Part shown: positions 31,330 to 53,192 of the stretch, one piece after another
How positions within the stretch are numbered: position 1 is the first letter of the stretch
How the letters are laid out: each line of letters starts with the position of its first letter
NCBI GenBank assembly: GCA_031431925.1
Contig: JANPEL010000298.1
Span: forward strand, 1-58,103
Source: Gemmatimonadota bacterium
GTDB lineage: Bacteria > Gemmatimonadota > Gemmatimonadetes > Gemmatimonadales > GWC2-71-9
Reading direction: 5' to 3'
DNA length: 58,103 nt
Made by a program: the position numbers and the translations under genes
The notes under the pieces: model-generated
Database searches by the model: none
Told to the model about the DNA's origin: nothing
What the model saw: only the letters and a program-made list of their open reading frames with translations

Positions 31330-32090
31330 GCAGGACCCTCGGCCACGAAATGAGGGTTGTCGAACCCCGGCTTTCCGTACCGGAGGTCCTCGCCGCCGAT
31401 GGTCCGGACCCGCCCCCCGGCCGCCGCCAAAACCGCGTGACCGGCCGCGATATCCCATTCCATCGTGCGGCCGAGTCGGGGATAGAGATCGGCGTCGCCG
31501 GAGGCCACCAGGCACAACTTGAGGGAGGATCCGGCATTGGTGGTCGAGGCCACCCGGCGGCCCTGGAGGAACGCCTCGAGCGCGGCGGCATCGCCGTGGG
31601 AGCGGCTGGCCACGACCACCAACCCCGATGCCGGCACGGCCCGGCAGCGGATCGGGCGCCGGCCGGCCTGATCTTCGACCCAGGCGCCGTGGCCGACGGC
31701 GCCGACGAACAGCCGGTGCAGCGCCGGCGCCAGCACGACCCCGAACACGGGGCGGCCCCGATGCACGAGGGCGATGTTCACCGTGAATTCGCCGTTTCGG
31801 CTGATGAACTCCTTGGTGCCGTCGAGGGGATCGACCAGCCAGAACCAGTCCCCGACCTCCGGGGAATGGCCGGCCGCCACCGCCTCCTCAGCCACCACCG
31901 GGACGCCCGGGGCCAGGCGCTCCAGGGCCGGGGTAATGATCGCCTCGGCCCGGTCGTCGGCCTGGGTCACCGGCGACCGGTCCTCCTTGCCGCGGACGGC
32001 AAAGTCGGTGGCGTAGACCTCCATGATCGCGGCGCCGGCAGCCCGGGCGATGGCGATGACCTCGGCTTGCCAACCGGCCTCGCCGATCAT
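31326..32090 (-). CDS. cysQ: 3'(2'),5'-bisphosphate nucleotidase
   Basis: 254 aa from ATG at 32090. Inositol-monophosphatase-family motifs: [26 protein letters not shown]. Confidence 0.8.
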
Positions 32091-32178
32091 CGATTCGTCC
32101 ACGACGCACCTGCCTTTTCTTGGGTTGGGCGGCCAATATACACGCAACTTCGTCCCGGGCTCCGTGGCACAGCCCTTG

Positions 32179-32205
32179 CGCCTGCCCGGCAGGGCCGGGC
32201 AGGCG
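32179..32205. promoter_or_regulatory. Strong GC hairpin in the cysQ/cysD divergent intergenic region
   Basis: Perfect 12-bp stem CGCCTGCCCGGC / GCCGGGCAGGCG with loop AGG, 40 nt upstream of the cysD ATG. No U-tract follows. Confidence 0.35.
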
Positions 32206-32244
32206 ACCCGGGGCACCGATCAGAACACACTACCGAATTGGTCC

Positions 32245-33144
32245 ATGAAACTCACCCACTTGCAGCGCCTGGAAGCCGAAAGCATCCACATCATGCGGGA
32301 GGTCGTCGCCGAGAGCGATCACCCCGTCATGCTCTATTCGGTCGGCAAAGACAGCGCCGTGATGCTACAGCTGGCCAAGAAGGCCTTCCATCCGTCACCG
32401 CCGCCATTTCCGCTCCTTCATGTGGACACGACCTGGAAGTTCCGGGCGATGTATGAGATGCGGGAGCGGATGGCTCGCGAGTTGGGCATGGAGTTGCTGG
32501 TGCATCAGAACCCGGAAGCCAAGGCGCTGGGCGTCAATCCGTTCGACCATGGCTCGCAAGTCCATACCGACATGTGGAAGACCCAGGGCCTCAAACAGGC
32601 GCTCGATCTCCACGGATTCGACGCGGCGTTCGGCGGGGCCCGGCGCGATGAGGAAAAGTCGCGGGCCAAGGAACGGATCTTTTCCTTTCGGAGCGACCAG
32701 CACCGGTGGGACCCCAAACTTCAGCGTCCCGAACTCTGGCGTCTGTACAACGGGCGGAAGCACAAGGGCGAGTCGATTCGGGTGTTTCCGATCTCGAATT
32801 GGACCGAACTGGACGTCTGGCAGTACATCCATCTGGAGAACATTCCGATCGTGCCGCTGTACTTTGCCGCTCCGCGTCCGGTGGTCGAGCGGGACGGCAC
32901 CCTCATCATGGTGGACGACGACCGGATGCGGCTTAAGCCGGGCGAGACGCCGATGATGAAGAAGGTCCGGTTTCGGACCCTGGGTTGCTATCCATTGTCC
33001 GGAGCGATCGAGTCCGAGGCGGATACCCTGGTCCGGATCATCCAGGAGATGCTCCTGACCCGGACGTCGGAGCGGCAGGGCCGGATGATCGACCACGACA
33101 CAGCTGCTTCGATGGAGAAGAAGAAACAAGAGGGGTACTTCTGA
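32245..33144 (+). CDS. cysD: Sulfate adenylyltransferase subunit 2
   Basis: 299 aa from ATG at 32245. [21 protein letters not shown] (PP-loop), [26 protein letters not shown] and the C-terminal [10 protein letters not shown] are classic CysD. Confidence 0.92.
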
Positions 33145-33145
33145 T

Positions 33146-35053
33146 ATGGCGCACGTGTCCGATCTGATCGCCACCGACATCGAAGCCTATTTGCGCCAGC
33201 ACGAGCGGAAGAGCCTGCTGCGGTTCATTACCTGTGGGTCGGTCGACGACGGCAAGAGTACCGTCATCGGCCGGCTGCTCTACGAGTCGAAGATGTTGTT
33301 CGACGACCAACTCGCCGCCATCGAGGCCGACTCGAAGAAGTGGGGCACCCAGGGCGGCGAGATCGACTTCGCCCTGCTGGTCGATGGCCTGGCCGCCGAG
33401 CGAGAACAGGGAATTACCATCGATGTGGCCTACCGGTTCTTCAGTACCGACCGGCGGAAGTTCATCGTGGCCGACACCCCGGGGCACGAGCAATACACCC
33501 GGAACATGATTACCGGCGCTTCCACCGCCGACGTCGCAGTCATCCTGATCGACGCCCGGAAAGGGGTTCTGACCCAGACCCGCCGCCACAGCTACCTGGT
33601 GAGTCTGATCGGGATTCGGAAGGTCGTCCTCGCGATCAACAAGATGGATTTGGTCGATTTCTCGGAGACCACGTTCCGCCAGATCGACGAGCAGTACCGA
33701 TCGTTCGCGGCTCAGATTGGTCTCACCGACATCACCTCGATTCCGCTCTCGGGCCTCAAGGGCGACAACATGGTCGACCCGAGTAAACGTACCCCATGGT
33801 ACCACGGGCCGACCTTGATGGAGTTTCTCGAGACCACCGAGATCGACGAGGAGCGCCTCCAAGCCGGTCCGCTCCGCCTGCCGGTCCAGTGGGTCAACCG
33901 GCCGAACCTCGACTTTCGGGGCTTCTGCGGCGTGATCACCGGCGGGTCCGTCAAACCCGGCGACCGGATTCGGGCCCAGCCGTCCGGCCGGGAAAGCCGG
34001 GTGGCTCGGATTGTCACCGTCGACGGCGATCTCCCTGAAGCAGTGGCCGGCCAGTCGGTGACCCTCACGCTGGACGACGAGATCGATATTTCGCGCGGGG
34101 ATCTCATCTCCGGGGCCGAGTCGCCGGCTGAAGTGGCGGACCAATTCGAGTGCACCATCGTTTGGATGGCCGATGAGCCGATGTTGCCCGGCCGGCCCTA
34201 CCTGCTCAAGATCGGCGCTCGGACGGTCAGCGCCACGATCACCGAGCCGAAGTACAAGGTCAACGTCAATACGATGGAGCACTTGGCGGCCAAGAAGCTC
34301 GACCTGAACGAGATTGGCGTCTGCAACATCGCCCTCGATCGCCCGGTGGCGTTCGACCCCTACAGCGCCAATCGGGATAGCGGCGGTTTCATTCTGATCG
34401 ACCGGATGACCAACAACACGATCGGCGCCGGGATGCTCCATTTCGCGCTCCGCCGTTCCCATAACATCCACCTGCAGCACCTCGACATCGACAAGGGTGC
34501 CCGGGCAGGGCTCAAGGGCCAGCGCCCGGTGGTGCTGTGGTTCACCGGCCTCTCGGGGGCCGGCAAGTCCACCATCGCCAACCTGGTCGAGAAACGGCTT
34601 CACGCGATGGGGCGCCACTCCTACCTGCTCGACGGCGACAATGTGCGTCACGGTCTGAACAAGGATCTGGGCTTCACGGACGCCGACCGGGTCGAGAACA
34701 TTCGTCGGGTGGCTGAGGTGGCCAAGTTGATGGTTGACGCCGGGCTAATCGTGCTGACCGCATTCATCTCACCGTTCCGCTCCGAGCGGGCCTTGGCCCG
34801 GAGTCTCCTCGGCGAGAATGAGTTCGTTGAAATCCACGTCGACACCCCGCTTGACGTGGCGGAGTCGCGGGACGTCAAGGGTCTGTACCAGAAGGCCCGT
34901 CGTGGTGAGCTGACCAACTTCACCGGCATCGACTCCCCCTACGAGCCGCCGGAGACGCCCGACTTGCGAGTCAATACCGTGGGGACCACGGCGGAGCAGG
35001 CGGCGGATCAGGTCATCGAGCGCCTCCGGGTGCTGGGGCTGATCGATCCATGA
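33146..35053 (+). CDS. cysNC: Bifunctional sulfate adenylyltransferase subunit 1 / adenylylsulfate (APS) kinase
   Basis: 635 aa. GTPase motifs [19 protein letters not shown]-terminal APS kinase domain [16 protein letters not shown]...[13 protein letters not shown]. Confidence 0.92.
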
Positions 35054-36783
35054 CCCTGCAGCAAGCCGTGGTGACCCTGGCTCTGGCCGTCCTCGTGGTC
35101 GAGTTGGTGCGCGACAAGCGGTCGCCCGCCACCGTGTTCGGCGGAGTGGCGCTGGCGTTTGTGCTGATCGACTACGTCGATATCGACACCAGCCTCCGGC
35201 AACTGACGAATACCGGCTTGGTCACGGTCGTCGTGCTGCTGTTGCTGTCGGTGGTGCTTGACAAAGCCCAATTGCTCGAGGCCGCGGCCGATCGGGTGGT
35301 CCGGGGCCCCTATCGGCTGGCCTTGACCAAGCTCTACGTCGCGACGGCCGCCTATTCGGCATTTCTGAACAACACGGCCGTGGTGGCGTCACTGCTCGGC
35401 CCGCTCCGCCAATCGCGGCAGCACTCACCATCGCGTCTCTTGCTCCCGATGTGCTTCGCTGCCTCGCTCGGCGGGATCCTGACCCTGGTGGGTACCTCCA
35501 CCAATTTGTTGATGAACAGCCTCCTGGTCGGCCGCCAGATGCCGGCGCTCCACATGTTCGATTTGTTCCCGGTCGGGATTCTGATCGTGGTGGCCTGCGG
35601 GATCACGATGGTGCTCCTGTATCCCTCGATTCTCAAGGAACAGCCGCCGGTGGACGATGTGGCGTCGGACTACTTCCTCGAGGCCACGGTGAGCCCGACC
35701 TCTCGCTTGGTGGGCCGCTCCGTGCAGGCCAATGGGCTCCGGAATCTGGCTCATTTGTTTCTCACCGAAATCGTCCGAGGCGGCCGGGTCATCGTGCCCG
35801 TCGAGCCGGACGAGGCGATTCAGGCCAACGACGTCCTGGTCTTCACCGGCGACATCACCCGGCTCGATGTGCTGGCCCAGTTCGACGGGCTCAAGACCCA
35901 CGGTGACCACTACGACTTGCCAACCGATAACTTGGTCGAGGTGGTCGTGGCCGCCCACTCCACCCTGGCCCGGCGGACGATCAAGGAAGCCGATTTTCGT
36001 TCCCAGTTCGACGCGGCGGTGATCGCGGTGCGACGGGGCAGCGAACGACTGGCCGGCGCCATCGCCAACGTGCCGCTCGAGGTGGGCGACACGCTCGTCC
36101 TGGTGGTCGGTCAGGACTTCGAGAAACGCAACAACCTGGCCCGAAACTTCGTCGTCGTCTCCCGCCGCGAGGTGCAGAAGTTCGTGGATCAGCGAAAGGG
36201 GCTCCTCGCGCTCGCCGGGTTCCTGGCCGTGGTGATCCTCTCGGCAGCCGGGGTGTTCGATTTTCTGAAGGGCCTGCTCATTCTGTTGACGATCTTTCTG
36301 GTCACGGGCCTCGTCAAGTCGAGCGACTTGCGGCGGAACATGCCCTATAGCCTGATCATCATCCTGGCGTCGGCCCTGGTGATCTCCCAAGTGATGATCA
36401 ACACCGGCACCGCTGAACTCTTGGCCGGCGGCCTTCTGACCGGGGCGGAGAATCTCGGCCCCTATTGGGCCTTGGGAATCATCTTGTTCGTCACCTGGGT
36501 TTTGACTGAGTTGATGAGCAATAACGCCGCGGCCGCGCTGGCCTTCCCGGTGGCCGTTGGGGTGGCCCAGAAACTCGGACTCGATCCGATGCCGTTCGTC
36601 ATGGCCGTGCTGTATGGGGCGAGTTGCAGCTTCATCACCCCGTACGGGTATCAGACCAACTTGATGGTGATGTCGCCCGGCCGGTACACCCTATCTGATT
36701 TCGTCCGCGGCGGCCTCCCGATCGCGATCGTGTTCTTGATCGTCGCGCTGCTTGCCATCCCGGTGTTCTTCCCCTTTCATTAG
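35050..36783 (+). CDS. SLC13/DASS-family anion permease with two central TrkA-C domains; likely sulfate uptake by context
   Basis: 577 aa with ATGA overlap with the cysNC stop. Multi-TM N- and C-halves flank two RCK-C-like segments (GRSV...L.EI.R, ...TL.LVG). Confidence 0.8.
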
Positions 36784-39952: not shown

Positions 39953-40201
39953 TTAGTTTCTCGGCGGCCTCGTGGGTGCTCGGATCATGGTCAAGTACAT
40001 CGTTTCGACCTTAGCGCGGGCCCACGGGGTGCGGCGCAGGAACGCCAGGCTTGACGCCACACTCGGGTTGGTGGTGAAACAGGCGACCGTGACCTCCCGG
40101 CCCATCCGCTCCCAGCCGACCTGCTCGACGAGTTCGTCGAGCATTCGGTGGAGCGTGATCCCGTGCAACGGATTATTGGGATGGTCTTTCGGGGCGGCCA
40201 T
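39953..40201 (-). CDS. VF530/DUF2132-family small DNA-binding protein
   Basis: 82 aa. NPLHGITL..ML.ELV...GWE.MG......CF..NPS..SSL.FLR.TPWAR.KVE..YL matches the VF530 family pattern. Confidence 0.7.
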   Translation of the reverse strand: MAAPKDHPNNPLHGITLHRMLDELVEQVGWERMGREVTVACFTTNPSVASSLAFLRRTPWARAKVETMYLTMIRAPTRPPRN

Positions 40202-40219: not shown

Positions 40220-40819
40220 CTAACGCCCGTCGGCCAACCGGCTGAGCGCGGCGAGAATCATCTCGTTGGTGGGCCGGATCTTGTAGTTGACTTCCGTGAA
40301 CTTCCACCGAACGATGCCCCGCTTGTCGATGACGTAGGTCGTCGGGTGCGGGAGGCCCTTGCTGGCCGGATTGAAGAGCCCGTAGCGGTCGATGACCCGG
40401 TGGCCCGGGTCCGACAACATCGTGTACGCCGGGGCTCGGCCGTCGGCCTTGGTAATCACATTCGCCATCATGTCGAGCTGTTCTTTGTTGTCGATCGACA
40501 GCGCGACGATTTCCGTATCACCGCGTCGGTCCGGTCCCAGCAGGTCTCTCAGCTCCCCGAGCTGACGGCCGCAATAGGGTCACCAATGCCCGCGGTAGAA
40601 GACCAAGATCACGTTCTTGGTTCCCCGGTACCCTGACAGGGTCTTCGCCGACCCGTCGCGGGCCTCCAGCGTAAAATCCGGCGCCTCGGCGCCGACGGCG
40701 ACCCGCGTCGTGTCGGTAGGCGGGTAGGTCCCCTCGTCCTTCGGTCCAAGCCGCCGGTCCTGGCCAAGGACCGGCGAGGCGAACAGCAGCCCCAGTGCCG
40801 CAACCACCGTCAAGCGCAT
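40220..40819 (-). CDS. Secreted AhpC/TSA-redoxin-fold (Prx-like thiol:disulfide oxidoreductase) protein with in-frame TGA at the active-site Cys position; candidate selenoprotein (U-P-Y-C)
   Basis: Track ORFs 40580..41455 (ends ...NVILVFYRGHW-TGA) and 40220..40471 are in the same frame. My translation across the gap has no other stop: W-[TGA 40580-40582]-PYCGRQLGELRDLLGPDRRGDTEIVALSIDNKEQLDMMANV... ATG at 40819 is preceded by GGAGGA. Signal peptide MRLTVVAALGLLFASPVLGQ. 199 codons, with the TGA as codon 80. Confidence 0.6.
40549..40565 (-). promoter_or_regulatory. SECIS-like hairpin downstream of the in-frame UGA
   Basis: mRNA reads UGA-CCCUAUUGCGGCCG-UCAGCUC-GGG-GAGCUGA. This is a perfect 7-bp stem starting 15 nt after the UGA, with a G-only apical loop 22-24 nt after it. 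The structure was not computationally folded. Confidence 0.35.
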
Positions 40820-40893
40820 CGATCCTCCATTGGTTAGGACCCTCACCGAAGGTAACCCAGCGGGTCGGCCACGACGAACCCGGGTCGCTCCTC

Positions 40894-41514
40894 TCAGGGC
40901 CGGTAGCGGGGCTCGGCCAACACCCGATCGTGCCGCCGGCTGAGTGTCAGCTGCGCCACTAAGGCCCCGATCAGCGCGAGGAACATGTCCCACTGGGTGT
41001 CCCACACATCCCCCTGGGTCCCCAGAAACGCGTCGGCCGAATCGCCGCCCAGCACGGCCGCCCACCACTCCACGAACTCGTAGCACGCGCTGAACGCGAG
41101 GCAGACCGCCGTTACCAGGACGAACAACCAGCGCCCCTGTCTGAGCGGCGAGGTCCGAAGCAGAATTTCCCGAACCAGGATCGCCGGTACGAACCCCTGG
41201 GCAAAGTGTCCGACCCGGTCGTAATGGTTCCGGGCCAACCCGAACAGATCCTGGACCCAGAAGCCGAGCGGAACTTTGGCGTAGGTGTAGTGGCCGCCGA
41301 CCATCAGGATCATCGCGTGGACCGCGAGCAACCCGTAGACCAGGGGAGTGAGCGGAAACCGCCGAGCGGTGGCAAGCAGGATCGGCGCGCCGATCAGGAC
41401 CGGGAAGATCTCGAGCCACCAAGTGGTCCGGTCGGCGGGCCGGAAGCCGGACCACGCCAGCACCAGGGTCACCCCGGCCACCAGCACCAGGGGCAACCGG
41501 TGCTGGCGCGTCAT
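40894..41514 (-). CDS. DUF2238 (YjdF-like) integral membrane protein
   Basis: 206 aa from ATG at 41514. Multi-TM, with the conserved HYTYAKVP...NHYDRVGHF motif typical of DUF2238. Confidence 0.7.
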   Translation of the reverse strand: MTRQHRLPLVLVAGVTLVLAWSGFRPADRTTWWLEIFPVLIGAPILLATARRFPLTPLVYGLLAVHAMILMVGGHYTYAKVPLGFWVQDLFGLARNHYDRVGHFAQGFVPAILVREILLRTSPLRQGRWLFVLVTAVCLAFSACYEFVEWWAAVLGGDSADAFLGTQGDVWDTQWDMFLALIGALVAQLTLSRRHDRVLAEPRYRP

Positions 41515-41516
41515 GA

Positions 41517-42080
41517 TTAGAAGAACAGGAAGCTCGGCGGCGCCATCCCGTTCTTTCGGAAATTCGCCACGGTCTGGCCGGCGGTCCACATCGTGTGCTG
41601 GTTCAGTTCATCCCAAACCTGCCACCGCGGAATCATCGTCCCGAAAAACTTGACTTGAATGTCCCGGTCCGCGTCGGTCTGATCGGCCAGCATCTGGTCG
41701 AGCGCGTCGTACCGCTCGGCAATGTACTTCTTGAGGTCGGCCCGGCTGTTGAGCACTTGGGCGGTATCGGCGTCGGCGTACGCTCGCCCCTTGAGGAACC
41801 CGTTGGCGATGAACATGTTGGCCGACACGATGTGGTGCAGCTGCTCCGAAAAGGACCGTTGTGCCGGCGTGGCCCGGTCGCGGTAGAGGCGCTCCGGCAT
41901 CGAATCAGCAAAGCTCAACAGGAGCTTTCGCTGGGCCTTGAGGGCACTTTGCTGGACGGCCCGATACTCCTTGGCCATGGCGAACTTGGCCGGCCCGGTT
42001 TCCGGGGGCTTGGGCTGGGCCATCAGGGACGAGACACTGGCCAGCAGCAGGCCGAGAGCCGGAATCGAAACGGAGCGCAT
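41517..42080 (-). CDS. Secreted DinB-superfamily protein
   Basis: 187 aa from ATG at 42080. Signal peptide MRSVSIPALGLLLASVSSLMAQ. Four-helix-bundle-like sequence with His-containing segments (EQLHHIV, LNQHTMWTAGQ) resembling the DinB/DUF664 type. Confidence 0.65.
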   Translation of the reverse strand: MRSVSIPALGLLLASVSSLMAQPKPPETGPAKFAMAKEYRAVQQSALKAQRKLLLSFADSMPERLYRDRATPAQRSFSEQLHHIVSANMFIANGFLKGRAYADADTAQVLNSRADLKKYIAERYDALDQMLADQTDADRDIQVKFFGTMIPRWQVWDELNQHTMWTAGQTVANFRKNGMAPPSFLFF

Positions 42081-47221: not shown

Positions 47222-48661
47222 ATGTTCCTCAGTACTGCGACGTACCGCGCCGCGGCGATCACCGTCATTAGCGCGCTTCAACTCTCCGCCCAGGCGCGGC
47301 CTGGCGCGGCCACCCATCCCGATGTCCTCGGCGCCGAGCGGTTGTTTTCGGCTTGGATGGAAGGGCAGATCGCTTACCGCGGACTGCCGGGCATCGTCGT
47401 CGGCGTCGTGGCGGATCAAGAGCTGGTCTGGACCGCCGGATTCGGCTTTGCCGACACCCAGGCCAAGCTGCCGATGACGGCCACCACCAAGTTTCGGATG
47501 GCCTCTCACAGCAAGCTCTTCACGGCCACCGCGATCATGCAGCTCCGCGAGCAGGGCAAGCTCGGGCTCCATGATCCGGTCGCCAAGTATTTGCCGTGGT
47601 TCCAGGTCAAACCGGCCGATCCGGGCGACCCGCCGATCACGATCGAGGAGCTGCTGACCCATAGCTCCGGGCTCCCGCGCGAGGCGGGGCCGCACTGGAC
47701 CACCTACGAGTTCCCGACCCAGGACGAGCTCCGGAGGTTGATCACCGAGCGGCAGGCCGCGTTCTCGCCTGAGGTCCGTTGGAAATACTCGAACCTCGCG
47801 TACTCGCTGGCGGGGATGATCGTCGAAACCGTGAGCGGGGAGAAATGGGCCGACTACGTCCAGAAGCACATCTACGAACCGTTAGGAATGACCGCGTCGA
47901 GCGTCGATCGGAATGCCCCCGGGTTGGCTGTGGGCTATGGCCGCCGGATGCCGGACGGATCCCGGGTGGTGATGCCGTTCGTCGACGCCCGTGGAATGGC
48001 GTCGGCCACCGGGATCACCTCGACGGTCGAAGATATGGCCAAGTTCGTCTCGGCCCAGTTCCGCAAAGGACCGATGGGTGGCCGGCAGATCGTTGGCACG
48101 GGGTCGCTTCGGGAGATGCACCGGGTCCGCATGCTCGAGACCAACTGGACCCAGGGGAATGCCATTGGCTTCGCGGTCAACCGGATCCGGGACAAGACCT
48201 ACGTCGGCCACGGGGGCGGGTACCCGGGCTATACGACCCAGACCCTGATTCAACTCGACAGCCGGGTGGGGGTGATCGTGCTGACCAATACCAACGACTC
48301 GAATCCGTTCGACATCGCCACCCAGTTGATGAGCACAGTGGGCGAGGCGGTTGCGAAGGCGACGGCCACCGAGCCGAAAGTCGTGGCCTGGGATCCGTCG
48401 TGGGCCCGGTTTGCGGGATTCTACAGCGGGCGCGGGGGCGATTCCCAGGTGGTGCTTCTCAACGAGCGCCTGGTGATCATCACCCCCAACGGCGCGAACG
48501 TCGACAATCCGATCCGGCTCGAGCCGCTCGGGAACGGGCTGTTCCGGTATGTCGCTCCGGTTGGGGGCGGGCCGGTCGGCGAGGTGGTGCGGTTCGTCGA
48601 GGAGGGCGGCCGGGTGGTCCGGATGATTACCGGCGACTCGTACGTGGATCGGGTCCGATGA
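47222..48661 (+). CDS. Serine hydrolase, beta-lactamase/transpeptidase-like (class C/D-aminopeptidase type)
   Basis: 479 aa from ATG at 47222. S-x-x-K motif in FRMASHSKLFTA. Signal-like N-terminus. Confidence 0.85.
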   Translation: MFLSTATYRAAAITVISALQLSAQARPGAATHPDVLGAERLFSAWMEGQIAYRGLPGIVVGVVADQELVWTAGFGFADTQAKLPMTATTKFRMASHSKLFTATAIMQLREQGKLGLHDPVAKYLPWFQVKPADPGDPPITIEELLTHSSGLPREAGPHWTTYEFPTQDELRRLITERQAAFSPEVRWKYSNLAYSLAGMIVETVSGEKWADYVQKHIYEPLGMTASSVDRNAPGLAVGYGRRMPDGSRVVMPFVDARGMASATGITSTVEDMAKFVSAQFRKGPMGGRQIVGTGSLREMHRVRMLETNWTQGNAIGFAVNRIRDKTYVGHGGGYPGYTTQTLIQLDSRVGVIVLTNTNDSNPFDIATQLMSTVGEAVAKATATEPKVVAWDPSWARFAGFYSGRGGDSQVVLLNERLVIITPNGANVDNPIRLEPLGNGLFRYVAPVGGGPVGEVVRFVEEGGRVVRMITGDSYVDRVR

Positions 48662-49635
48662 GGAGCGCCAGCGCCCTGGCCCTCGCGGGCCTGCTCGCCG
48701 GGGTCGGCGGATGTGCGGAGAAGCCGATTCCCGCCGTCGTCGATGCCGACGCGAAGCCGAAGGTCACGCCGGGCTGGCAGTGGTCGATCGACAGCGTCCG
48801 GAAGGTGGTCGGTGCGGTTCGGGCAGGGAAGAGTCTCAAACCGAAGGTTTGGCCTAACGGCGCCAAAGTGGCCGTGTTGCTCTCGTTCGACGTCGACAAC
48901 GAAACGATCCCGATCCGGTTCGGCGAGCCCACGGTCGGCGCCTTGTCGCAGGCCCAGTACGGCGCCCGGGTCGGACTCGGGCGGATTCTCGGGCTGCTCG
49001 ACCGGAACGCGATCCCCGCCACGTTCTTCATTCCGGCCGTGAGCTTGATGATTACCCCGGAAATGGTGGGCCAGATCCAGCAGGCCGGGGTCCACGAGTT
49101 CGCCGTGCACGGGTGGATCCACGAGCTCAATACCACCTTGCCGGGTGACATCGAGAAGGAACTCGTCCAGCGGGCCGTCGATACCCTCACCAAGATGACC
49201 GGCACCAAGCCGGTGGGCTATCGGGCGCCCTCGTGGAATATGAGCCCCAATACGATGCGGATCGTCCAGGAACTGGGCTTCTTGTATGAAAGCTCGTTGA
49301 TGGCCGACGACGTGCCCTACGAGTTGGTGGCGGACGGGAAGCCGACCGGCGTCGTGGAGTTGCCGGTCGAGTGGATCAAGGACGACGCCCCGCTCTACGA
49401 TCCCCGTGGCAACGCCTACAGCCCGCCCCGTGACGTGGCCCAAGTGTGGATCGACGAGTTCGACCGGGCCTATGACGAGGGCGGGATGTTTCTGCTCACC
49501 ATGCATCCGCATATCAGCGGCCATGGGTCGCGGATGGTGGCGCTCGAGCTGTTGGTGGCGCATGTCAAGAAGCGGACTGGGGTCTGGTTTGGAACCCACC
49601 GGGCCGCCGCCGAGTGGGTGAAGGCGCCGCACTGA
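48658..49635 (+). CDS. Polysaccharide deacetylase (NodB-homology) lipoprotein
   Basis: 325 aa from ATG at 48658 (ATGA overlap). Lipobox LLAGVGGC. Motifs: LLSFDVDNE, HGWIHE, YRAPSW. Confidence 0.85.
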   Translation: MRSASALALAGLLAGVGGCAEKPIPAVVDADAKPKVTPGWQWSIDSVRKVVGAVRAGKSLKPKVWPNGAKVAVLLSFDVDNETIPIRFGEPTVGALSQAQYGARVGLGRILGLLDRNAIPATFFIPAVSLMITPEMVGQIQQAGVHEFAVHGWIHELNTTLPGDIEKELVQRAVDTLTKMTGTKPVGYRAPSWNMSPNTMRIVQELGFLYESSLMADDVPYELVADGKPTGVVELPVEWIKDDAPLYDPRGNAYSPPRDVAQVWIDEFDRAYDEGGMFLLTMHPHISGHGSRMVALELLVAHVKKRTGVWFGTHRAAAEWVKAPH

Positions 49636-50168
49636 CCCTGCCGGCCGGACGCCGTCATCCTGGTTTGGAACGGATGGATCGAAGCCGTCGGCGACCGGGC
49701 CACGACTCCGATTCCTCGCGGTACCCGGGTCGTCGATCTCCGCGGCCGATTCGTCACCCCGGGCTTCGTCGACCTGCATTCGCACATCGCGATCGGGGCT
49801 TGGGCATTCGACACGGTCCAGGGTCGCCCGACGCTTCGGTATGACTATGATGTGGCCGCGACGAGGGAGCTGGCTCGAACCCAATTGGCGTTCGGGGTCA
49901 CCACGGAATTCCGGCCGGTCCGACAGCCACCGCAGTGCGGATCAGGAATCGGATCAGGCTCATCAGGATGGCAACCCGGAACGCGGCCGTCGCGTTAGGC
50001 AGCCCCTCGGAGTTCGGCACGGTCGAACCGGGCAAACGGGCGGATCTGGTGGTTCTCAGCGCCGACCCCCTCGCGGACATTGGCAATGCCCGGCGGATCG
50101 AGTGGGTGGTCCGGAGCGGCCGGATGAGCAAGCCGGGAGGGTTTCTCCCGGCTCGCCCGCGGCCTTAA
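49636..50168 (+). pseudogene. Amidohydrolase-family relic: N-terminally truncated, with a large internal deletion and a frame change
   Basis: Own translation directly after the deacetylase stop, in the same frame: ...DAVILVWNGWIEAVGDRATTPIPRGTRVVDLRGRFVTPGFVDLHSHI...LAFGVTT (to about 49905). A different frame (track ORF 49935..50168) then gives the family C-terminus ATRNAAVALG...GTVEPGKRADLVVLSADPL. About 250 aa of catalytic core is missing between the two pieces. Confidence 0.55.
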
Positions 50169-51914: not shown

Positions 51915-53192
51915 TCAGCGAGTAGTGCCGGTCAGCCGGTTGTACCGGGCTAGGATGGCCCGGACCTGGTCGTGGGGAATGGCCCACCCCCGCCGGTAGT
52001 CGGCCCCGTCCATCGTCTCGGCCGCCATCATGGCGTTCAAGATCGCCTCTTCGGTGGCCTCGACGGTCGCCGTGAAGACCGGGTCCATCAGGCCGGACCC
52101 AATCCGCTGCATCGTCGGCGCCGGCAAGGTCGAGCGGCCGCTATTGCCCCAGTCGATGCCCCGATTGGCCGTCGAAAAAGCGATGAAGATGTCGCCCGAG
52201 CCGTTGCCGTTGTTGGACCCCATCCGCCCCATGCCTAACGCCACCCGCCGGACCACCCGCTTGAGCTGATCCGGAGAGAGTGGCGCATCGGTCGCGACCG
52301 CGATGATGATCGACCCCTGTTCGGGTTCTTCGGCCGGTTGATCCGAGGGCGCCGGACCCGAGGCGCAGACCGGGAACGGCTTGCCGTCGAAGGCCATGAC
52401 CGGGGGGTCGATGCGTTGGGCCACGCAGGGGTCGACGCCCGTCACTTCCCGGCCCACCGGAATCCCGGCGATCCGGAGTTGGGTCCGGGTGCCGTAGTTG
52501 CACTGGACCAGGACCCCGACCATGAAACCGCCGTCGCCGGCGGCCAACTTCCGCGAGGAGGTTCCAGTGCCGCCCTTGAAACCGTGGCAGCTCATCCCGG
52601 TGCCGCCCCCGACGTTCCCCTCGGTGACCGGCCCGGCCTTCGCGTTCTCGAGGGCCTGAAAGGCGTGCTCGGCCTTCACGTGCAGGCCCTTCATGTCGTT
52701 CAATCCGCCGTCGGACGTTTCCGCGACGACCGGATACCAGAACGGGCCGGGGGCGTTCCGTTTGACCATCCAGTCGACCACCGCGTCACGGACCGTGCCG
52801 ACGCTCAAGGTGTTGGTGATCATGATCGGGGTCTCGAGGACCCCGACCTCATCGATCCAATGGGTGCCGGTCATGTCGCCGTTGCCATTGCCGGCATAGA
52901 ACGCGGCGAACACCGGTTCGAGGGTGGCTTTGCCCCGGGGAAGGATCGCGGTCACCCCGGTGCGAACCGGCCCTTGGCCGATGACGCGTTTTCCGCTGCC
53001 CTTGATCAGGGTGACAAAGCCGACCTCGACCCCGGCCACATCGGTGATCGCATTGAGCGGACCGGGCGTCCCGTCGAGCGGAATGCCGAGATCGCGGGCG
53101 CGGGATTTCGGTTGCGCGTGGATCGTGAGAGGCGCGGCGAGTGCCGCGATCGCAGACAGGGCGGCGACGAGCCGGAGGGCGGGGCGGGTCAT
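51915..53192 (-). CDS. Secreted P1/S58-family peptidase (DmpA-like L-aminopeptidase/D-esterase)
   Basis: 425 aa with a signal peptide. NAITDVAGVEVG, TGVTAIL and the GGTG...GGTGT segments are typical of the DmpA/BapA family. Confidence 0.8.
   Translation of the reverse strand: MTRPALRLVAALSAIAALAAPLTIHAQPKSRARDLGIPLDGTPGPLNAITDVAGVEVGFVTLIKGSGKRVIGQGPVRTGVTAILPRGKATLEPVFAAFYAGNGNGDMTGTHWIDEVGVLETPIMITNTLSVGTVRDAVVDWMVKRNAPGPFWYPVVAETSDGGLNDMKGLHVKAEHAFQALENAKAGPVTEGNVGGGTGMSCHGFKGGTGTSSRKLAAGDGGFMVGVLVQCNYGTRTQLRIAGIPVGREVTGVDPCVAQRIDPPVMAFDGKPFPVCASGPAPSDQPAEEPEQGSIIIAVATDAPLSPDQLKRVVRRVALGMGRMGSNNGNGSGDIFIAFSTANRGIDWGNSGRSTLPAPTMQRIGSGLMDPVFTATVEATEEAILNAMMAAETMDGADYRRGWAIPHDQVRAILARYNRLTGTTR

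Follow-up and report, generated by a model that had tools for sequence, protein, structure and literature searches.

A conserved in-frame UGA and a covarying hairpin in a probable Prx-like UxxC selenoprotein gene of Gemmatimonadota

The catalogue of prokaryotic selenoproteins lists a "Prx-like thiol:disulfide oxidoreductase" (PF00578; UxxC, where U is selenocysteine), which was predicted with high confidence, and also a "Redoxin family protein" (PF08534; UxxC) (PMC13188914). The Prx-like (peroxiredoxin-like) UxxC family corresponds to 'Prx-like 1' in the selenoproteome from Global Ocean Sampling (GOS) (PMC2398784). The stretch of DNA analyzed here (58,103 nt, hereafter the window) comes from a Gemmatimonadota bacterium (GCA_031431925.1, contig JANPEL010000298.1, positions 1-58,103 of the forward strand) and carries on its minus strand, at 40220..40819, a gene with an in-frame TGA that appears to be of this already-described kind, an assignment based on its PF00578 domain and UxxC motif. 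Like members of the described family, the gene combines the PF00578 domain with a putative selenocysteine (Sec) as the first residue of UxxC, a hairpin resembling a Sec insertion sequence (SECIS) just past the UGA, abundant Cys homologues, and, in some related loci, a neighboring gene for an AhpD-like CxxU selenoprotein. On the other hand, the clade to which the window gene belongs differs from the described family in being found mostly in Gemmatimonadota and largely in non-marine samples (judged by sample names), and in having a predicted N-terminal signal peptide and, at the C-terminus, a motif specific to the clade (WKFTEVNYKIRPTN).

Very probably, the UGA at 40582-40580 is a genuine Sec codon and the locus comprises a single, intact gene that encodes an exported Prx-like selenoprotein with the motif W-U-P-Y-C, because the TGA is conserved, the half of the gene downstream of it evolves as translated sequence, and the hairpin covaries and is accompanied by constraint on synonymous sites. 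The minus-strand frame runs from an ATG start codon (40819-40817) to a TAG stop codon (40222-40220) and comprises 199 sense codons, the UGA (Sec80) included, with a single internal TGA at 40582-40580 (...NVILVFYRGHW-TGA-PYCGRQLGELRDLL...) and no further stop. A Shine-Dalgarno-like GGAGGA, which would serve as the ribosome-binding site, is located at 40828-40823, 3 nt 5' of the ATG. The list of open reading frames (ORFs) cuts the locus at the TGA into the pieces 40580..41455 and 40220..40471. An earlier reading of the window made from its sequence only (the sequence-only reading) had already reported these coordinates, the single TGA, the split ORFs, and a 199-codon gene with a GGAGGA element, all of which proved correct on re-reading. 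The first 20 codons (40760..40819) encode a predicted signal peptide (MRLTVVAALGLLFASPVLGQ), with a hydrophobic N-terminus followed by a small-residue motif, and comparable N-termini are present in the full-length Cys homologues P0002, P0004, P0026, and P0056. Export is thus predicted, and the mature protein would have about 180 residues. The UGA and the Cys83 codon (40571..40573) would form the ends of the U-P-Y-C redox motif in the context FYRGHW-U-PYC of an AhpC/TSA-fold protein, with Cys83 as the putative resolving Cys; its codon is invariant in 83 sequences (TG fixed at columns 10-11 of the alignment A1 described below).

The TGA is conserved far beyond the window. A species-level genome scan (one genome per species) gave 287 relatives, and the codon was read in the best 80 loci, all of which (80/80) have TGA at the Sec80 position. 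These loci are mostly from Gemmatimonadota (Gemmatimonadales and Longimicrobiales), with some from Acidobacteriota and Binatia. The same codon is TGA in all 12 of the metagenome loci that bear the motif, which were found with a Cys-form query, and in five further contigs (L002-L005 and L106). Altogether, TGA is present here in more than 95 independent assemblies whose protein identities range over about 50-90%. In the DNA of L002 and L003, for example, both halves are conserved and the site reads FYRGHW-TGA-PWC/PYC. Two types of matches came from a protein search, namely full-length Cys forms (WCPYC) and many proteins of ~110 residues that start just past the CxxC position, the latter being split gene calls. 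At codon 80, the full-length homologues have Cys where the Sec forms have TGA, and the TGA column aligns with the redox-active Cys of CxxC; a genuine TGG Trp codon was never seen there among the homologues.

The orthologues continue beyond the TGA. In 93 of 93 sequences, the open frame extends over 116-126 further codons, and pairwise differences at codon positions 1/2/3 average 0.30/0.24/0.51 downstream of the TGA compared with 0.31/0.27/0.58 upstream. Mean amino-acid identity is likewise similar in the two halves (61% downstream and 60% upstream). Since both the codon-position pattern and the identity are equal, the part past the TGA is translated and is selected in the same way as the part before it, in keeping with the initial impression from the sequence that the gene does not look decayed. 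One metagenome copy (L099:114-) has the Sec-TGA and the hairpin but also a second stop eight codons past the hairpin (QLGELRDL followed by a stop), which may reflect a frameshift or a decayed copy.

The hairpin UCAGCUC-GGG-GAGCUGA (40565-40549) starts 14 nt past the UGA, within the (R)QLGEL(R) codons, and consists of a 7-bp stem (UCAGCUC/GAGCUGA) and a GGG loop located 22-24 nt past the UGA. It had been pointed out from the sequence together with a SECIS-like spacing, and both its position and its presence in the minimum free energy (MFE) fold were borne out. The bacterial SECIS (bSECIS) model has a loop of 3-9 nt, a stem of 4-16 bp, G at loop positions one and two, a UGA-to-loop distance of 16-37 nt, and an MFE of ≤ -7.5 kcal/mol (PMC13188914). 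The window hairpin fits all of these published constraints, with its GGG loop, 7-bp stem, spacing of 21 nt, and -8.6 kcal/mol for the 17-mer folded alone. Among the homologues, the loop consensus is G-[G/U]-N and the MFE is ≤ -7.5 kcal/mol in 74 of 83. Similar to the SECIS elements of E. coli fdhF and fdnG and to the consensus bSECIS, the window element is a stem-loop in the coding region directly past the UGA, with a small apical loop that opens with G and then G/U, and with a spacing within 16-37 nt. However, it is very compact in comparison to the fdhF/fdnG elements (7-bp perfect stem, 3-nt loop, no bulged U) and has no primary-sequence resemblance to them.

The comparison with related sequences provides the strongest support for the hairpin. 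In an ungapped alignment of 83 distinct sequences covering the UGA and 51 nt after it (alignment A1), the helix occupies columns 18-24 and 28-34, and 97.6% of its cells are paired, as opposed to 29-51% in slid controls. Double changes occur at 4 of the 7 pairs, and the observed values were reached by none of 500 shuffles. RNAalifold independently arrives at this very helix and, within the 54 nt past the UGA, at no further conserved one, so the hairpin is conserved as well as predicted to fold. At pairs 21-31 and 22-30, all changes are compensated. The compensatory changes, which arose in separate lineages, include U-A to G-C at the base pair, G-C to A-U (CAA...UUG) in L055/L070 and separately in L081, C-G to U-A in L058, C-G to G-C in L056/L075, and C-G to U-A in L079/L082, while L098 bears several of them together. 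Moreover, synonymous sites within the stem are frozen, whereas neighboring sites outside the stem and the Gly site in the loop drift. The four-fold-degenerate Leu third positions in the stem are C in 78/83 sequences (column 24) and G in 83/83 (column 33), compared with G48, C23, A6, and U6 (column 42) and G59, C17, A4, and U3 (column 45) at Leu third positions outside it, and U39, G24, C19, and A1 at the Gly third position of the loop (column 27). The hairpin thus illustrates neatly how an RNA element can constrain a peptide (QLGEL) and its synonymous sites alike.

Several observations weigh against reading the UGA as Sec. No selA, selB, selC, or selD was found in the 58-kb window by tRNA scan, Rfam scan, or homologue search, as had been stated from the sequence, and none of the four was found in the flanks of the three closest relatives (L006-L008) either; of the source genome, these 58 kb were covered. 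The tRNA and Rfam scans of the window returned zero matches, the tRNA scan of 60 related loci found no tRNA-Sec, and tblastn searches with E. coli SelA and SelB against the window and 1.19 Mb of related loci yielded nothing real. The 71 nt surrounding the hairpin do not fold better than shuffles do (z = 0.07), and of the 1435 TGA triplets in the window, 15 (about 1%) are followed by a perfectly paired hairpin of 7 bp or more whose geometry is SECIS-like. Of the 7 pairs, 5-6 are still present in two Cys-form homologues (L104 and L105), and hence the stem may be partly due to the encoding of Q-L-x-E-L in a GC-rich genome, or L104 and L105 may carry a fossil SECIS. Lastly, the close relative L001 lacks the N-terminal half of the gene, the UGA, and the hairpin, which would make the gene dispensable in at least one lineage. 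Taken alone in the window sequence, the hairpin is weak and only modest evidence for Sec, so that the decisive evidence is the comparison with related sequences. Of the sequence-only argument from the hairpin, therefore, the conservation and covariation stand, but the single sequence is thermodynamically ordinary.

The retained pairs in L104 and L105, the local fold z-score of about 0, and the outer pairs that the MFE fold of a longer region adds would also suit the alternative that the gene does encode a selenoprotein, with the hairpin at 40549-40565 being a by-product of QLGEL coding in a GC-rich genome and the true SECIS being larger or located elsewhere. This appears improbable given the frozen third positions of the stem next to drifting neighbors, the full compensation at pairs 21-31 and 22-30, and the failure of RNAalifold to find any alternative conserved helix in the 54 nt past the UGA. 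In addition, neither the helix (2 and 5 of 7 pairs) nor the Gly loop codon survives in L102 and L103, which are the closest Cys forms.

It is less probable still that the UGA is read as a standard amino acid (Trp, Cys, or Gly) by means of a reassigned code or near-cognate suppression. Such a reading would be consistent with the Trp (W) found at the Sec codon in the JGI products P0033, P0036, and P0038, and with the Sec machinery of the source genome not being in evidence within 58 kb. In the sole JGI DNA checked (L106:632-1219, which encodes P0038), the W position is a TGA, and the Trp apparently results from a stop being read under a code in which TGA is Trp. TGA truly terminates 57 of the 93 homologous redoxin genes and ends 15 of the 32 long ORFs in the window; as an ordinary terminator in both, it indicates that the genetic code has not been reassigned. 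Furthermore, the position matches the redox-active Cys of CxxC and is never a genuine TGG, the hairpin fits the bSECIS constraints, and related genomes encode a Sec-type SelD and a second selenoprotein family.

The selD gene with an in-frame TGA is located ~2.5 kb from the Sec-redoxin gene in 13 related loci (L050, L052, L053, L059 (12728-13759), L060, L063, L065, L069, L076, L077, L083, L084, and L085). Its TGA is at the known Sec/Cys17 position (SHGAG-U-ACK, compared with SHGAGCGCK in E. coli) and is followed by a hairpin of its own (CUCGG-loop-CCGAG). In eight loci, an AhpD/CMD-like gene with an in-frame TGA in a CxxU motif adjoins the Sec-redoxin gene (L002:2258, L022:4520(-), L023:11286, L025:8280, L028:8013(-), L031:5798, L040:10273, and L094:3855). 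The motif context is N-x-C-x-Y-U-I-H-H-H, or N-x-C-x-Y-U-I/V-x-H-H-G-A-G-L, and the TGA is followed by a conserved ACGGAG-CGGGU-CUCCGU hairpin; the window itself has no AhpD-like CxxU gene. Because of the selD genes with TGA in 13 loci and the AhpD-like CxxU genes in eight, the genomes of this clade are taken to hold several independent Sec-type genes, as judged from their sequences. In L059, YgfZ-like and SirB1-like ORFs lie on the opposite strand between selD and the Sec-redoxin gene.

An error in sequencing or assembly, or a recent nonsense mutation, would make the locus a broken Cys-type redoxin pseudogene, and both the two ORF pieces and the lack of Sec machinery in the window would fit that reading. 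A clearly degraded copy does exist in L001 (91% nucleotide identity), in which ~985 bp of the window (40533-41517) are replaced by 63 bp (L001 2366-2428). The loss comprises a 231-residue membrane-protein gene and the first ~96 redoxin codons, including the UGA and the SECIS, and the remnant is a 124-residue protein (P0012) with a signal peptide fused to the C-terminal half; either the selenoprotein was lost in that lineage or the deletion is an artefact of assembly. The sequence-only reading had itself left room for a sequencing error or a very recent nonsense mutation in the window, which the recurrence of the TGA in 80 genomes, 12 metagenome contigs, and five other contigs excludes, and a pseudogene is scarcely credible given the same TGA across more than 95 divergent assemblies, a downstream frame that is intact and constrained like the upstream half in 93 of 93 sequences, and a conserved, covarying hairpin past the TGA. 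Equally hard to credit is that two products are made from the two halves, one an exported peptide of 79 residues and the other a C-terminal protein of ~110 residues with its own initiation. Gene callers do give separate 109-113-residue C-terminal proteins (P0087-P0120), but the called starts vary between homologues (M or V, at different positions), the first ATG past the TGA in the window is 36 codons downstream, neither a start nor a Shine-Dalgarno sequence is conserved, the stretch from the TGA to the called starts is conserved as protein (PYC.RQLGELR), and a single half would not form the fold.

With the UGA read as Sec, the protein (U replaced by C) matches the Pfam families AhpC-TSA (1.3e-28) and Redoxin (1e-20), and its AhpC/TSA (PF00578) score is 99.9 bits against a gathering cut-off of 26. 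It has the UxxC motif in the form W-U-P-Y-C, with Sec as the first residue. The best sequence match in the PDB is the 1-Cys peroxiredoxin AhpE of M. tuberculosis (1xvw; 6e-16). In this alignment, Cys83 corresponds to the peroxidatic Cys (the FTGIC cysteine) and Sec80 to the conserved Thr of peroxiredoxins, while Arg76 takes the place of the Pro, and the 'HP' of PHPTTY that of the Arg in 'NRGTF', so that only the Cys of the active site is kept. The canonical PxxxTxxC motif and conserved Arg of peroxiredoxins are accordingly absent. The structure was modelled with AlphaFold (AF2) on P0004, a Cys-form homologue 62% identical to the window protein. The model has a predicted local distance difference test (pLDDT) score of 85.9, places the CxxC at the N-terminal start of helix 93-102, and has AhpE as its best Foldseek match (TM 0.85).

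None of the NCBIfam models reached its cut-off for the window protein. The scores were 34.7 bits against 270 for PrxU (NF040737, TxxU), 48 against 170 for ResA, 21.6 against 123 for DsbE, 20.8 against 230 for TlpA, 33.2 against 120 for the SelL-related redox protein, and 28.2 against 300 for the WAxxUGC selenoprotein, with BCP far below its threshold. The lack of a curated NCBIfam match may contribute to the truncated GenBank calls. The protein shares its fold with AhpE, BCP/PrxQ, and PrxU, and Cys83 aligns with the peroxidatic Cys, but the active-site Pro, Thr, and Arg of canonical peroxiredoxins are replaced by Arg76, Sec80, and a His-Pro pair. Whereas Sec replaces the peroxidatic Cys in PrxU (TxxU), the putative Sec of the window protein is three residues earlier. 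With oxidoreductases of the TlpA/ResA/CcmG type (W-C-x-x-C), the protein shares predicted export, a thioredoxin fold, and a Trp before the dithiol motif at the start of a helix, and a DsbD-type reductant is plausible for it as well, since DsbD genes adjoin Cys-form homologues. Its fold is closer to peroxiredoxins than to TlpA, however, and its scores are far below the ResA and TlpA cut-offs. Judging from these alignments, the predicted protein combines a peroxiredoxin fold with a thioredoxin-type U/CxxC motif and is neither a canonical peroxiredoxin nor a member of TlpA/ResA. The proposal made from the sequence, a Prx-like UxxC redoxin selenoprotein with the TGA at the first Cys of CxxC, is therefore supported as to Sec, the AhpC/TSA fold, and the Cys in homologues, but the protein is not a true peroxiredoxin and its Sec is at the peroxiredoxin Thr position.

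If the UGA at 40582-40580 is decoded as Sec during translation, the 17-nt hairpin 14 nt past it may act as a bacterial SECIS that, with the UGA in the A site, brings SelB loaded with Sec-tRNA(Sec) to the ribosome. Once the protein has been exported, Sec80, at the N-terminus of the first helix, would be the attacking nucleophile and would form a selenenylsulfide with Cys83, which could be re-reduced by a membrane electron-transfer route of the DsbD/CcdA and thioredoxin-like type. The protein may thus function as a thiol:disulfide oxidoreductase and/or a thiol-dependent peroxidase in the cell envelope. In Longimicrobiales-type loci, the Sec-redoxin gene is syntenic with the Sec-containing selD. 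A bolder proposal, to which we attach only slight credence, is that the Sec-redoxin is a near-obligate, phylum-wide selenoprotein of Gemmatimonadota working in envelope selenium handling rather than in general antioxidant defence; it might, for example, reduce selenite or selenotrisulfide species in the periplasm and thereby feed selenophosphate synthesis.

The finding brings no new mechanism and is useful chiefly for annotation and for charting the use of Sec among Gemmatimonadota. Sec would be used by many members of this phylum, as well as by some Acidobacteriota and Binatia, with at least three Sec families in these genomes (Prx-like UxxC, AhpD-like CxxU, and SelD), one of them apparently exported. 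Our literature search found no paper linking Gemmatimonadetes/Gemmatimonadota to selenoproteins or selenocysteine. In public records, the gene is split or mistranslated. NCBI, for instance, has a 109-residue C-terminal fragment of the L027 gene (P0090) named 'redoxin domain-containing protein', and dozens of ~110-residue fragments are present in the protein collection. A dedicated family model would correct about a hundred or more genomes.

The gene neighborhood was compared by naive ORF calling, and since the clustering was swamped by antisense ORFs of the GC-rich DNA, it is used qualitatively only. Cys-form loci adjoin genes for thioredoxin, a second redoxin, DsbD, and extracytoplasmic function (ECF) sigma/anti-sigma factors. 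In about 22 Sec-form loci, a TlpA-like, membrane-anchored second redoxin (AhpC-TSA/Thioredoxin_8) is encoded immediately downstream (e.g., L003:3354-3905, L002:3411-3887, L019, L020, and L024), often with ECF sigma/anti-sigma genes nearby. The window has neither of these arrangements, and in place of the TlpA-like partner it has a VF530 (DUF2132) gene at 39953-40201.

Elsewhere in the window, a motif scan and a scan based on G+C content at third codon positions (GC3) for other TGA-interrupted genes gave no second candidate, with the site at 51917 left aside. The TGA at 49633 was rejected as a Sec codon because it is an ordinary stop with an amidohydrolase-like fragment behind it. The ORF that ends there (47779..49635) is polysaccharide-deacetylase-like, and the amidohydrolase-like N-terminal fragment (...VDLRGRFVTPGFVDLHSH...; 49636-49995, plus strand) begins in frame directly past the TGA and then breaks off, suggesting a gene that is truncated or frameshifted and not a Sec site. 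The only SelB-like match in the window, a weak one at 33383-34243, is the GTPase domain of a CysN/CysC fusion and not SelB. It lies in what, as read from the translations, resembles a sulfate-activation cluster (32023-36783, plus strand), with a CysD-like ORF (32023-33144), the CysN/CysC-like fusion (33146-35053; 635 residues), and then a 577-residue membrane-transporter-like ORF.

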